DNA from: a virus
IMG/VR virus record: IMGVR_UViG_2029527005_000013
DNA length: 64,000 bases
Direction: 5' to 3' (one strand)
In this document: positions 57,933-61,265 of the stretch, piece by piece
Numbering within the stretch: position 1 is the stretch's first letter
Layout: each line of letters starts with the position of its first letter
The notes under the pieces: generated by a model
Told to the model about the DNA's origin: nothing
What the model saw: only the letters and a program-made list of their open reading frames with translations
Databases searched by the model: none
Position numbers and translations under genes: made by a program

Positions 57933-58612
57933 CAGATTTTCTCCAATGACACCTTAATGCGCTTGATGTTGCCGTATAGGGTTTTTGCAGTGCCCAACCC
58001 CGCAGCTTCTCGTGGATTACAAAACACCCAGAGGCTGGTAAAGTAGTTTGAGTTGTGGGTGTATGGCCCACCAACCCCCACCTTACCCTCCATTCGTGCC
58101 CTAATGGTAGTAGCATTGAGGTACTCAATCCGAAGGTCCTGCATCGTGCTGTCACCGGGAACAGTTGTAGAACCCCCTGATGAAGAAGAAGGGTTAGATA
58201 CAAGGATCATCCCGTAAGATGAGGATTTCGTCATTGAAAATCCCAGGCGGAAAGTATTACCATTGAAGTGACCACCTGTCCCGAAACAAGTTCCTGTAAC
58301 CGGGGACTGAAACTCAATTTGGTATACCAGCTTTTTCCCGGCAGGGATCACGGAAGGCGGTTTAAACCAAGATGAAGACCAGTGGTAGCAATTTCCCGCC
58401 AACGACATAACCTTGCCATATTCAGCATGGTTGATGATCTTGTTGGTATATCCCGCCTGTCCTGCGTAACTGGCTAAGTAACGGGATAGTGTGTTTCCGG
58501 TGATCTGGTCAATCATCACCTCGTCGCCCTCTTCCTGCATTTCTGCATCAAATAGGAAAAGTGGCTCATCATCAGAGGGCATCTTCGCCCCAGCAGTCAA
58601 AAGTTCAAGCAT
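57932..58612 (-). CDS. probable virion accessory protein (beta-sandwich/lectin-like)
   Basis: GGAGG RBS; MLELLTAGAK N-terminus; late-type promoter upstream. Confidence 0.7.
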   Translation of the reverse strand: MLELLTAGAKMPSDDEPLFLFDAEMQEEGDEVMIDQITGNTLSRYLASYAGQAGYTNKIINHAEYGKVMSLAGNCYHWSSSWFKPPSVIPAGKKLVYQIEFQSPVTGTCFGTGGHFNGNTFRLGFSMTKSSSYGMILVSNPSSSSGGSTTVPGDSTMQDLRIEYLNATTIRARMEGKVGVGGPYTHNSNYFTSLWVFCNPREAAGLGTAKTLYGNIKRIKVSLEKI

Positions 58613-58631
58613 TGTGTACCTCCTTTCCATT

Positions 58632-58641
58632 AGTTTACCAC
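58632..58641 (-). promoter_or_regulatory. extended -10 late-type promoter GTGGTAAACT
   Basis: Between the terminator and the RBS of 58612. Confidence 0.5.
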
Positions 58642-58653
58642 TGAAAGCACAAA

Positions 58654-58680
58654 TAAAAAAGCCCTCCGCGAAGGGAGGGC
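58654..58680 (-). terminator. terminator ending the tRNA transcript
   Basis: GCCCTCCC-TTCG-CGGAGGGC followed by a T-tract. Confidence 0.85.
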
Positions 58681-58737
58681 ACTGAGGCGAAGGAGAGGAG
58701 ATATTTGTTCTTATTATAGGAATACTACGAGGGTATT

Positions 58738-58824
58738 TGGCAGAAGAGGAGAGACTTGAACTCTCAAGCCCCGAAGGACTACGGATTAGCAGTCCGTTGC
58801 GGCTACCAGTTTCGCCACTCTTCT
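58738..58824 (-). tRNA. tRNA-Ser(GCT)
   Basis: Cloverleaf; ACGGA-CT-GCT-AA-TCCGT; long variable arm; encoded CCA. Confidence 0.92.
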
Positions 58825-58828
58825 AAAT

Positions 58829-58914
58829 TGGCGGAAGATTGAGGAGTCGAACCCCTGCCCTTTCGGACCCCTCCGGGTTCAAACCGGATTGCCAGCCACT
58901 TAGCGGAATCTTCC
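58829..58914 (-). tRNA. tRNA-Ser(TGA)
   Basis: TCCGG-TT-TGA-AC-CCGGA; long variable arm; GTTCGACTC; CCA. Confidence 0.92.
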
Positions 58915-58920
58915 TGAATT

Positions 58921-58995
58921 TGGCTGGGGTTGCTGGATTCGAACCAACGCATACGGGGATCAAAGCCCCGGGCCTTACCGCTTGGCTAAACCCCA
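58921..58995 (-). tRNA. tRNA-Gln(TTG)
   Basis: CGGGG-CT-TTG-AT-CCCCG; GTTCGAATC; CCA. Confidence 0.95.
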
Positions 58996-59082
58996 GTTGA
59001 GGTGAGATAATCCGGTCACCACGGCAACTTCGATAATTAAAAACCCCGTGATTGTCATTTCTGACCACCCAGGGTGTCATTT

Positions 59083-59159
59083 TGGAGCATCCACTCGGAT
59101 TCGAACCGAGGGTTCCGACTTGGAAGGACGGAGTGTTAGACCGCTGACACTATGGATGC
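59083..59159 (-). tRNA. tRNA-Gly(TCC)
   Basis: CCGTC-CT-TCC-AA-GTCGG (one mismatch); CCA. Confidence 0.9.
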
Positions 59160-59196
59160 TAAACGCTCAGGTCCGAAGAAATCTGAGCCTTGTGTA

Positions 59197-59274
59197 TGGT
59201 ACTCCAGGAGAGATTCGAACTCGTCACTGACATGAACCTAAATCAAGTGCCTCTACCAATTGGGCTACTGGAGC
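59197..59274 (-). tRNA. tRNA-Leu(TAG), short variable arm
   Basis: CTTGA-TT-TAG-GT-TCATG; GTTCGAATC; A73-CCA. Confidence 0.88.
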
Positions 59275-59280
59275 AATATT

Positions 59281-59358
59281 TGGTCGGTGTAGCAGGATTC
59301 GAACCTGCGGACCCCTCGGTCCCAAACCGAGTGCTCTACCAAACTGAGCTACACACCG
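59281..59358 (-). tRNA. tRNA-Pro(TGG)
   Basis: CTCGG-TT-TGG-GA-CCGAG; CCA. Confidence 0.95.
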
Positions 59359-59364
59359 TGAAAG

Positions 59365-59471
59365 TGGTTTTGAGATGGGAGTCCGGGTCCTGTACAGCCT
59401 AACCTGTTGTCAATTGGCAGCTATCGCGCGATTCGCACTTCCGACACAGGATTTAACTGTTACACCTCAAA
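59365..59471 (-). ncRNA. candidate tRNA-like structured RNA (ACCA end, no normal anticodon arm)
   Basis: TTTGAGGTG/CATCTCAAA terminal stem plus ACCA; nested ACAG/CTGT and CCTGT/ACAGG stems. Confidence 0.5.
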
Positions 59472-59473
59472 GA

Positions 59474-59551
59474 TGGCACACCCAACGAGACTCGAACTCG
59501 TATTTCCCAGCGTGAAAGGCTGGCGTCCTATTCCAATTAGACGATAGGTGC
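59474..59551 (-). tRNA. tRNA-Glu(TTC)
   Basis: CCAGC-CT-TTC-AC-GCTGG; CCA. Confidence 0.95.
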
Positions 59552-59559
59552 TTTAAAGC

Positions 59560-59634
59560 TGGCTGATCTACCTGGATTCGAACCAGGGTAAACGGATTAA
59601 CAGTCCGCCGTAATAACCGCTATACGATAGATCA
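59560..59634 (-). tRNA. tRNA-Asn(GTT)
   Basis: GCGGA-CT-GTT-AA-TCCGT; CCA. Confidence 0.95.
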
Positions 59635-59639
59635 AAAAT

Positions 59640-59810
59640 AGGGTGCGCCCCTTCTGCTGTGGTTGGCAGAGATCCAGAACACAGTTATACTGTGGGAGGA
59701 ACAATGCCCCAGGGAGCTTCAGTTGGACGACTTGCGGCTGTACTACCATCTGGGCTGAGTGGTTGCCTTTTAGGCTCCAGCATTTACCAGCTTGGCACCG
59801 CTTCCTCTTC
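59640..59810 (-). ncRNA. candidate structured RNA between tRNA-Lys and tRNA-Asn
   Basis: Nested GAGGAA/TTCCTC, GTGCC/GGCAT, GGAGC/GCTCC and TCAG/CTGA stems plus two hairpins. Confidence 0.4.
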
Positions 59811-59887
59811 TGGTGGGCCGTCAGGGATTCGAACCCCGAACCTATCGCTTAAAAGGCGAGTGCTGCTAACCGTTGAGCTAACGACCC
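59811..59887 (-). tRNA. tRNA-Lys(TTT)
   Basis: TCGC-CT-TTT-AA-GCGA; GTTCGAATC; CCA. Confidence 0.95.
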
Positions 59888-59892
59888 GAATT

Positions 59893-59974
59893 TGGTGGAG
59901 CCGGGTGGATTCGAACCACCGTGTGGGATACCCGATTTACAGTCAGGCGCATTCGACCGCTCTGCCACGTCTCC
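59893..59974 (-). tRNA. tRNA-Tyr(GTA)
   Basis: CCTGA-CT-GTA-AA-TCGGG; extended variable arm; CCA. Confidence 0.93.
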
Positions 59975-59977
59975 AAA

Positions 59978-60118
59978 TTCTCTTTTGTTCGGCTCACCTG
60001 ACATCCATGAGGCTGCGCCACCTCATATAGACCTTATTCGCTAGACCGCCCCGTTGTACACCGTGACTATCCTGCGAGTTCGTTAACAGATGCCCGACAA
60101 AAGAGAACTTCTTAACAA
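59978..60118 (-). ncRNA. candidate ~140-nt RNA closed by a long terminal stem
   Basis: TTCTCTTTTGT/ACAAAAGAGAA 11-bp stem continued by CGG/CCG and CATCTG/CAGGTG; internal ATGAGG/CCTCAT hairpin. Confidence 0.45.
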
Positions 60119-60135
60119 AGGCCCCTTCGGGGCCT
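60117..60135 (-). terminator. terminator hairpin after 60135..60509
   Basis: GGCCCC-GAA-GGGGCC followed by TTTGTT. Confidence 0.65.
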
Positions 60136-60509
60136 TAATCTTCACCTTCTGCCATCTTGTACTCCCGGATCTCTTTCGTGATGGGGATCGCTGCTTTGAT
60201 CTCATCAGATGTTCCGGCATGAGTAGAAGAACTTGCTGAAGTCGTGCCGCCAGCGGCCTCGTCTTCGTTATCCTCTGCGGTGTAGAGATTGTGAACCTCT
60301 TTCGCCTGCTCAAGGATGTACTTAGCCGTGGTCTCTTTAACTTTCTCGGTGCCCGTAGTGAGCAGACCTTCGAGAGTCTTCAGAGCTTGCGGCGTCAGAC
60401 GGGCTAGTTCGCCACGAGCAGAGATGATTGCCTTTTCAAGAGCAATCGCCGTGCTTTCTTCGCGGCTGGGACGGCCTCGCTTACGAGTAACAATCGCAGC
60501 TTTGGTCAT
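60135..60509 (-). CDS. DNA-binding protein with an AT-hook-like motif; candidate terminase small subunit
   Basis: RKRGRPS; ALKTLEGLL....EKVKETTAKYILE helical motif; own promoter. Confidence 0.6.
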   Translation of the reverse strand: MTKAAIVTRKRGRPSREESTAIALEKAIISARGELARLTPQALKTLEGLLTTGTEKVKETTAKYILEQAKEVHNLYTAEDNEDEAAGGTTSASSSTHAGTSDEIKAAIPITKEIREYKMAEGED

Positions 60510-60539
60510 AAAGCCCCCTGTTTTCTAATCAGTTTATAC

Positions 60540-60568
60540 ATCTTAGCAGTTAAACCGACATTAGTCAA
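60540..60568 (-). promoter_or_regulatory. sigma70-type promoter
   Basis: TTGACT-N17-TAAGAT. Confidence 0.75.
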
Positions 60569-60584
60569 CAGGTTACATTAAATT

Positions 60585-60661
60585 TGGTGCGCCTTCCCAG
60601 ATTCGAACTGGGAACCCCTGCCGTTTGAAAGCAGTGCCTCTGCCAATTGGACTAAAGGCGC
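60585..60661 (-). tRNA. tRNA-Leu(CAA), short variable arm
   Basis: CTGCT-TT-CAA-AC-GGCAG; GTTCGAATC; A73-CCA. Confidence 0.9.
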
Positions 60662-60918
60662 AGACCTCTCAGCAAGTCCGGTAGCTTTACACTCCGGGGG
60701 AGAGAGGAATGGGCAGAGGACGTATGCCCGTGGGGTTGACTTCCCCTTCTCGTCCAGCAATTGCCTGTTTTGCGTCACGGGTGTCTTTCGACAAAAGCAA
60801 CCGTCGCTATTCCGAGGCAAGTCGATGGAGCCGCTGTCTTCCGGCTGAACTGGCCCAACGTCATCGCAGAGGGTCCACTTAATCCATCCACCTACTTGAT
60901 TGTCATCTCGTTCGGGAC
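60662..60918 (-). ncRNA. candidate ~255-nt multi-domain structured RNA
   Basis: Many complementary stems, a GAAA tetraloop and a possible pseudoknot; no RBS-led ORF; own promoter. Confidence 0.55.
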
Positions 60919-60924
60919 ATTTTC

Positions 60925-60953
60925 AGATTACCTGTAGAACTATTCTTTGTCAA
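60925..60953 (-). promoter_or_regulatory. strong sigma70-type promoter for the ncRNA-tRNA-Leu transcript
   Basis: TTGACA-N17-TAATCT. Confidence 0.8.
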
Positions 60954-61110
60954 CAGGCTTTTTACCGTTTGCACAAAGATTGCACATGATTGTTCGTTTT
61001 GGGCCGAGATACTGGTGACCGCAGACGAAGCAAAGGCAGATGTAACCCTTATACTCGTGGTTCCGGGGGTTATCCTCCCCCGGCAGGTGGTTAAAGGTCC
61101 GGGCGCTCAT
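60940..61110 (-). CDS. small zinc-finger protein (56 aa)
   Basis: CLCFVCGH...MCNLC; ATG overlaps the upstream peptide ORF. Confidence 0.65.
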   Translation of the reverse strand: MSARTFNHLPGEDNPRNHEYKGYICLCFVCGHQYLGPKRTIMCNLCANGKKPVDKE

Positions 61111-61183
61111 CGAACACATCCACGTCTTCAGCGGAACGGATACCTTCACCCCATCCGGTCAGGAAATCATACTCGTCAAACAT
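61091..61183 (-). CDS. 30-aa acidic micropeptide (MFDEYDFLTGWGEGIRSAEDVDVFDERPDL)
   Basis: Translated by hand; GAGGAG RBS 7 nt upstream; paralogous to the neighbouring peptide. Confidence 0.65.
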   Translation of the reverse strand: MFDEYDFLTGWGEGIRSAEDVDVFDERPDL

Positions 61184-61265
61184 CCCAGTTCTCCTCTCCG
61201 AGGCCCCAGTCTTCCTCACGGCTGATGCCTTCCCCGTAGCCAATCACTAATTCAGTGCTGTTCAT
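61176..61265 (-). CDS. 29-aa acidic micropeptide (MNSTELVIGYGEGISREEDWGLGEENWDV)
   Basis: Translated by hand; GGAGG RBS; ATGA overlap with the upstream gene. Confidence 0.65.
   Translation of the reverse strand: MNSTELVIGYGEGISREEDWGLGEENWDV

Follow-up and report, generated by a model that had tools for sequence, protein, structure and literature searches.

The DNA examined here is a stretch of 64,000 nucleotides (nt) from the IMG/VR virus record IMGVR_UViG_2029527005_000013, called the window in what follows, and the phage it comes from is a Certrevirus (Vequintavirinae); the DNA appears to derive from the metagenome of an ant fungus garden. ARAGORN detects 11 tRNA genes in the window, all on the minus strand, and immediately upstream of the first of them, that for tRNA-Leu(CAA), lies a segment (60662-60953) which an earlier note on this DNA had interpreted as a promoter followed by a multi-domain, probably pseudoknotted non-coding RNA (ncRNA) that it could not assign to a family. 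Comparison with related phages bears this interpretation out, with covariation among the homologues and no match in Rfam, and the segment very probably represents a genuine structured RNA family. Coordinates refer throughout to the whole window, in which the features of the RNA are all on the minus strand.

The promoter proposed in the earlier note, TTGACA-N17-TAATCT leading into the segment, is present (Table 1), with both hexamers invariant in 13 relatives and with variation in the spacer and in the 6 nt that follow the -10. It was not listed by a consensus scan because its -10 shares with TATAAT only T1, A2 and T6, three positions of six. Since TTGACA overlaps the last codons of a 69-amino-acid open reading frame (ORF), whose stop codon (60942..60940) falls inside the promoter spacer, only the conservation of the -10 can be taken as clean promoter evidence. 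From the position of the promoter, transcription is predicted to start at about 60918-60921, which is also where sequence conservation begins, and from this start (~60920) to the 5' end of tRNA-Leu, directly abutted by position 60662, there are 259 nt. The first description, an RNA of about 255 nt and four domains, is right as regards its being structured, and the RNA is better viewed as a core of about 210 nt (60916..60708) to which the fourth domain is an optional 3' addition.

Table 1. Predicted features of the RNA locus and the adjoining tRNA gene; relative numbering takes window position 60920 as position 1.
Feature	Window position	Strand	Description
Promoter	60925..60953	-	-35 TTGACA, 60953..60948; 17-nt spacer; -10 TAATCT, 60930..60925
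P0, 5' hairpin	60891..60916 (relative 5-30)	-	Invariant 8-nt loop GAUGACAA at 60907..60900
P1, 5' strand	60884..60888	-	GAUGG; pairs with CCAUC at 60828..60824, closing the three-way junction
P1a, variable junction hairpin	60851..60877	-	Nine unrelated sequences of 23-47 nt, each folding as a hairpin
P1b, conserved hairpin	60829..60846	-	AGCCG-loop-CGGCU; third pair C-G replaced by G-C in Serratia phages (AGGCG/CGCCU)
P1, 3' strand, and junction	60821..60828	-	CCAUC, 60828..60824; invariant junction GAC, 60823..60821 (from alignments)
P2, variable domain	60761..60820	-	60 nt here, with GAAA tip
Conserved 3' core	60708..60760	-	UUGCU, S1, inserted hairpin, S2; mean identity 88% across both clades
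Domain 4, optional 3' hairpin	60665..60707	-	Outer stem CCUCUC/GAGAGG; conserved interior CCCCCGGAG...CCGGACU
tRNA-Leu(CAA)	60585..60661	-	Most upstream tRNA gene of the window (ARAGORN and Rfam tRNA model)

Range of the RNA family

BLAST searches recovered the segment, at 80-91% identity, in about 25 records of phages infecting Cronobacter, Pectobacterium, Enterobacter, Pantoea and Klebsiella, including phiTE, whose genome paper does not mention the element (PMC3475682). In every relative's record the RNA is unannotated, except for a few short ORFs that were probably called in error; in the F1M1E record, small ORFs are annotated on the opposite strand. Only contigs of the Certrevirus type, three more distinct ones among them, came up in three motif scans of IMG/VR and one scan of metagenomes. 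Diverged and shorter copies were found by profile search (nhmmer) in the Serratia phages ChuuTotoro (L028:531-696) and Kashira (L029:703-863), to which the covariance model R1 gives 110-119 bits, and the Acinetobacter phage ABPH49 has a 99.4% identical copy of the Kashira form, so that minimal versions of 161-166 nt occur in three Serratia-type Vequintavirinae. The core measures 161-249 nt across 19 homologues. According to BLAST, nhmmer and the covariance model there is one copy per genome in Certrevirus, ChuuTotoro, Kashira and ABPH49, and model R1 finds no second copy within the window.

The same model, at E ≤ 10, has no match in UPEC06, SSBI34, the Erwinia phage pEp_SNUABM_01 or two IMG/VR contigs, all of which carry the 124-amino-acid gene that neighbours the RNA in the window, and the pseudoknot motif described below has no match among 185,579 prokaryote species genomes (one genome per species). 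As judged from these comparisons, the RNA family is real but narrow, being restricted to two groups of Vequintavirinae, Certrevirus and a small branch of Serratia phages. In ChuuTotoro and Kashira a spacer of about 135 nt separates tRNA-Cys from the RNA (L028:393-530 and L029:565-702); this spacer is nearly identical in the two phages, the RNA itself being 82% identical, and it could represent a degenerate tRNA or another conserved non-coding element.

Conserved fold of the RNA

The case for a fold rests on comparison with relatives, because the window's sequence on its own folds no better than its shuffles (z = -0.35). In an alignment of 17 rows, 97.5% of the cells are paired and eight pairs are altered on both sides, as compared with 2.6 ± 1.1 in shuffles (none of 500 reaching eight) and with two at most when the partners are slid out of register. 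The covariation that the earlier note had looked to among homologues is therefore present. The alignments also show invariant blocks alternating with segments that are swapped wholesale from phage to phage. The pairings drawn by eye in the note, namely GATGG/CCATC, TGGACCC/GGGCCA, AGCCG/CGGCT, TTGCCT/AGGCAA, ACGG/CCGT, the GTC-GAAA-GAC tip, GGGG/CCCC, GGGCA/TGCCC, GGACG/CGTCC and CCTCTC/GAGAGG, are each backed by compensatory change or by hairpin replacement. One further helix, CAAGT/ACTTG, has to be abandoned: ACTTG is peculiar to this phage and CAAGT forms the 3' side of P0, a hairpin that the note had missed.

In P0, the two pairs that close the loop covary (A-U/G-C and G-C/U-G/A-U), and eight of the nine stem pairs would form in the Serratia-phage versions and five of nine in Certrevirus. 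A different 5' hairpin produced by RNAalifold (helix 1 of model R1) was rejected, since it fails in the Serratia phages and a register centred on GAUGACAA fits all clades. The junction helix P1 passes from GAUGG/CCAUC to GGUGG/CCACC and GGCGAG/CUCGCC; as helix 2 of the covariation count it has four pairs altered on both sides, with 99.2% of its cells paired. Within the predicted three-way junction, CR8 and CR9 have an additional 39-nt hairpin 3' of P1a, and the loop of P1b starts with GA and ends with ACAG in all phages except ChuuTotoro, where the end reads GCAGCU. The P2 domain is only 14-15 nt long in the Serratia phages and 36-37 nt in phiTE and P7_Pc. Its closing stem differs in sequence and yet pairs in the window, POP15, IMGVR12996, phiTE, P7_Pc and both Serratia phages, the stems being UUGCCU/AGGCAA, AUACCU/AGGUAU, GACCU/AGGUC, GUUACC/GGUAAU and GUCCC/GGGAC; for the P2 of CR3-type variants, single-sequence folds give other structures, and a short closing stem was paired by eye.

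The conserved 3' core would contain the pseudoknot. Its two helices, S1 (GGACG, 60755..60751, with CGUCC, 60722..60718) and S2 (GGGCA, 60729..60725, with UGCCC, 60715..60711), cross each other, and a hairpin, GGGG-AAGUCAA-CCCC (60746..60732), is inserted between their 5' strands and has one compensated pair. In this block 97.8% of the cells are paired, a value reached by none of 500 shuffles; S2 replaces G-C by A-U in 4 of 10 sequences, S1 has a single compensated change (P7_Pc, G-C to U-A, with an offset of one column), and the remaining pairs are invariant. The S1/S2 pseudoknot is thus supported, but thinly, and two mutually exclusive hairpins are possible. A long-range helix offered by RNAalifold, pairing the first nucleotides (GUCC.G) with CUGGAC, was discarded: it is broken by A-A in P7_Pc and IMGVR12996, the GUCC is missing from the Serratia phages, and the compensated change of P7_Pc is in the competing S1 helix.

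The fold may be completed by a contact between two of its hairpin loops, a feature that the earlier note did not notice. The UGAC of the P0 loop is complementary to the GUCA of the loop of the pseudoknot hairpin, giving 4 base pairs in Certrevirus and 6 in the Serratia phages (UGACAA/UUGUCA), and such a loop-loop contact would account for the invariance of both loops.

Domain 4 is best read as a genuine hairpin and a detachable module. Its outer stem covaries (UCUCCC/GGGAGA and CCUUCC/GGAAGG), the inner CCGG/CCGG pairing proposed for it is invariant in all carriers and hence offers no covariation either way, and the whole domain is absent from KaOmega, IMGVR12996, DU_PP_I, ENT3, CB7 and the Serratia phages. 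Insertions in three of these phages mark the 3' edge of the RNA core as a recombination boundary. In CB7 (L014:937-1329) an HNH endonuclease gene is inserted immediately 3' of the pseudoknot, and in DU_PP_I (L011:730-1143) and ENT3 (L013) an unannotated ORF of about 137 amino acids, probably also HNH, occupies the same site; in these three phages the insertions replace domain 4 and tRNA-Thr. In phiTE, the stretch between the RNA and tRNA-Cys (L004:1770-1869) retains a diverged domain-4 hairpin and what appears to be the 3' end of a decayed tRNA-Thr (...GGCACCAGAUCAC).

A separate observation concerns the coding sequence phiTE_200, about 550 nt upstream of the RNA in phiTE, which contains (L004:1180-1199) a perfect 20-nt reverse complement of the 3' half of the pseudoknot (CGGGCAUACGUCCUCUGCCC), so that the phiTE_200 mRNA could pair with the RNA core. 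The complement is limited to phiTE: CR3, POP15 and the window differ from it in the homologous codons, and no match of this kind exists in the window.

RNA gene, leader or other function

The segment is, on the comparative evidence, a non-coding RNA and not a protein gene, because the long open frame on the RNA strand has its first in-frame start only at 60820 (TTG) and continues through the tRNA, because indels shift the frame, and because base losses keep the helices. In this respect the earlier note, which had seen no ORF led by a ribosome-binding site, was correct. Reading frames are not kept among homologues, the longest open frame changing both frame and strand, and P2 lengths of 14, 15, 36, 37, 60, 61, 62 and 65 nt shift the frame from one homologue to another. 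What survives the paired losses of single bases (GGGG/CCCC to GGG/CCC) and the swapping of whole hairpins is base pairing and not the codons. These facts tell against the idea that the RNA has no function and that conservation comes from a small protein gene or from an element acting at the DNA level. That idea can draw on the stop-free frame that covers the entire segment on the RNA strand in several phages, on the opposite-strand ORF calls of F1M1E and on an opposite strand that folds nearly as well, and its probability is nevertheless very low.

The more serious competitor holds that the RNA leads the tRNA transcription unit, acts in cis and is later discarded; it could shield the untranslated transcript from Rho, promote read-through in the manner of put RNA, or present the first tRNA to RNase P. 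Such a leader would suit the arrangement of most Certrevirus genomes, where a promoter precedes the RNA and the first tRNA begins only 3-9 nt beyond it. However, what follows the RNA is not conserved: the downstream element is tRNA-Leu in the window and tRNA-Thr in CR3 and KaOmega (after 5 nt in the latter), the first downstream tRNA among the relatives is Thr, Cys or Leu, and no tRNA follows the RNA at all in IMGVR12996, where the next promoter and a coding sequence lie directly 3' of it, or in ChuuTotoro, where a coding sequence follows. The upstream neighbour varies as well: the Serratia phages carry the RNA within the tRNA array, after tRNA-Cys, and inspection by eye showed no separate promoter for it. 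Moreover, the unit headed by the RNA comprises only one to three tRNAs before the next promoter, so that read-through control seems needless, and a Rho shield would not need a pseudoknot core that is 88% identical and common to two clades. In the window, a second sigma-70-like promoter (TTGACT-17-TAAGAT, with an upstream TG, 60540-60568, minus strand) comes directly after tRNA-Leu, which makes the RNA-plus-tRNA unit very short; it precedes the 124-amino-acid gene (60509..60135; phrog_3330, function unknown). Since the downstream element varies between tRNA, promoter and coding sequence, the segment resembles a gene for an RNA more than it does a leader, and the leader is considered unlikely.

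Two further alternatives have much lower probabilities. A sensor or switch, in which S1 and S2 would be alternative helices or the core would bind a ligand, governing processing or read-through, would agree with an aptamer-like anatomy that begins at the transcript start and combines an invariant core with freely variable peripheral stems; the compensated changes in both S1 and S2 would suit exclusive hairpins as well as a knot, and the link between S1 and S2 is short for a classical pseudoknot. Against it, no expression platform was recognized, no terminator follows the RNA (no terminator-like site was found between 60953 and 60585), the downstream element varies, and no riboswitch family is matched even at E ≤ 10, which together make the switch quite improbable. 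A small self-cleaving RNA, or another catalytic RNA processing the precursor, is less probable still: the pseudoknotted core, the invariant junction nucleotides and the adjoining sites that must be cut are what such an RNA might display, but no Rfam ribozyme model is matched, the strand order S1, hairpin, S2, S1', S2' is in our reading unlike that of ribozymes resembling the one of hepatitis delta virus, and RNase P already explains the 3' cut.

The explanation that best accounts for the whole, with a probability of about 0.5, is a compact ncRNA gene of a new family that would be transcribed early, obtain its 3' end through RNase P and act in trans as a binder or decoy, as an accessory of the phage. 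The host sigma-70 RNA polymerase would transcribe it early in infection, and the transcript would fold into the three-way junction and the pseudoknot, the P0 loop UGAC docking on the GUCA of the pseudoknot-hairpin loop. Cleavage by RNase P at the next tRNA, in the window at the RNase P site of tRNA-Leu(CAA), would define the 3' end and release the RNA, which could then bind a protein or another RNA through its invariant core, acting as a decoy or sequestering its partner during host takeover or counter-defence. The trans-acting binder or decoy, taken by itself, has chances somewhat short of even, and a role as a protein sponge is a guess. The RNA would be accessory and dispensable, because CB7 is viable although its promoter, the 5' half of its RNA and its tRNAs are gone. 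RNA of relatives has also been assembled in short contigs (161-218 nt) from four metatranscriptome assemblies of four studies, one 218-nt contig spanning 60716-60931, which is almost exactly the core; a search for RNA-seq of an infected culture found none.

Several observations weigh against a trans-acting ncRNA gene with this fold, in addition to the poor showing of the single sequence against its shuffles. The opposite strand folds almost as well, and the energy strand test is accordingly not decisive; the alignment in which pairs were counted had been fitted to the covariance model, and the covariation derives from few independent lineages. S1 has, beside its one compensated change, one mismatch (IMGVR12996), its link to S2 is only 2 nt, which is tight for a classical H-type knot, and the two loops proposed to touch are both invariant, so that covariation cannot probe their contact. 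The metatranscriptome contigs have a depth of 2-12, their strand and ends are unreadable, and two of them extend upstream past the promoter. Finally, co-occurrence pointed to no partner among the neighbouring genes.

Regarding such partners, none of the neighbouring ORFs has a Pfam domain. The 69-amino-acid ORF upstream of the RNA (60940-61149, minus strand; phrog_8931, function unknown) has a CxxC...CxxC zinc-ribbon pattern; it was rejected as a candidate partner, being present also in Escherichia coli Vequintavirinae and in T4-like phages that do not have the RNA.

A speculative reading, which is quite improbable, would make the two invariant loops a built-in codon-anticodon pair for aspartate, the RNA being a decoy, a binder of tRNA-Asp or a self-assembling unit. 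The P0 loop carries U-GAC-A, that is, a GAC codon with a purine 3' of it, the arrangement seen in T-box specifier loops, and the pseudoknot hairpin resembles an anticodon arm, with a G/C stem of 3-4 base pairs and a mostly 7-nt loop with GUC-A; in Kashira the loop reads UUGUCAG, to be compared with CUGUCAC in the phage's own tRNA-Asp. Were this true, the RNA might be a decoy for an anticodon nuclease, a modification enzyme or some other factor that recognizes GUN anticodon loops. Alternatively, it might bind tRNA-Asp itself, or the loops might pair between molecules, head to tail, building a miniature RNA-only particle similar to those of ROOL and GOLLD.

Relation to known RNAs

Rfam 15, which includes GOLLD, ROOL, riboswitches, ribozymes, 6S and Y RNA-like families, returned only tRNAs for the whole window at the gathering score. 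Within 60662-60953, relaxing the threshold to E ≤ 10 added only chance fragments of long non-coding RNAs with 14-15 bits, and at E ≤ 5 the RNA of four divergent homologues (L028, L029, L009 and L021) gave no match. The family search suggested in the earlier note therefore leaves the novelty of the RNA unrefuted. No tRNA-like gene was detected by ARAGORN in 60662-60953, and the Rfam tRNA model matches this stretch only at 60588-60661. The suggestion that the RNA could be an antitoxin mimic did not hold up: Tandem Repeats Finder (minimum score 30) reports no arrays in 58500-61200, and blastn-short with the pseudo-ToxI of phiTE and its flanks as query gives nothing in the window at E ≤ 1, so that the window has neither a copy of pseudo-ToxI nor an RNA similar to it.

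Structured orphan RNAs that travel with phage tRNA islands, such as T4 RNAC and RNAD, ROOL and GOLLD, are a long-standing puzzle, and the present RNA offers a convenient entry into it. Its minimal form of 161 nt is small enough for chemical probing, crystallography, cryo-electron microscopy and clean genetics, and its carriers include cultured, tractable phages, among them phiTE, in which an RNA was first shown to defeat host abortive infection. Natural variants are already at hand, with a 5' deletion (CB7), no tRNA (IMGVR12996), no domain 4 (KaOmega) or the minimal form (Kashira). Should a decoy role or a tRNA-directed one be proven, the RNA would be a second, unrelated RNA-based device for host interaction in Certrevirus, and a testable model for the structured RNAs that ride with phage tRNAs. 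If it were only a leader, it would still fill an unannotated gap of 200-300 nt in about 25 published genomes.

T4 RNAC and RNAD lie in the tRNA gene region of their phage and are matured together with the tRNAs. The RNA of the window similarly adjoins the tRNA array and is co-oriented with it, and it shares with RNAC and RNAD the condition of a phage-encoded small RNA of unknown function; the T4 RNAs are classed as late, their function being still unknown (PMC9697503). The likeness is one of kind; the window RNA has a sigma-70-type promoter, and its predicted architecture, a three-way junction with a pseudoknot, is specific to its own family. Phages and prophages also encode ROOL and GOLLD, frequently in the vicinity of tRNA islands; these RNAs, whose function is unknown, contain several pseudoknots and are held together by kissing loops, and many GOLLD RNAs exceed 800 nt (bioRxiv 10.1101/2024.12.08.627333). 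As the earlier note had stated, the window RNA is shorter; with a core of 161-249 nt among the homologues it is several times smaller, and the Rfam models of ROOL and GOLLD do not match it.

The pseudo-ToxI of phiTE (L004:3151-3209), likewise an ncRNA, is encoded in the corresponding tRNA region of a congeneric phage and has been proven to act in counter-defence (PMC3475682). It consists, however, of 1.5 tandem repeats of a 36-nt unit, and the window RNA has no repeats and no similarity to it. The proposed formation of the 3' end recalls the MALAT1-mascRNA system in that RNase P would cut at a downstream tRNA or tRNA-like element to generate the 3' end of an ncRNA. That system is eukaryotic and unrelated in sequence, and in the window the downstream element is a real tRNA and the processing is only proposed. 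A catalogue of 10,006 viral candidate RNAs, with motifs of up to 151 nt, may contain fragments of the RNA. Taken together, these comparisons identify it as a new family within a known kind, that of the orphan structured RNAs linked to phage tRNA islands.

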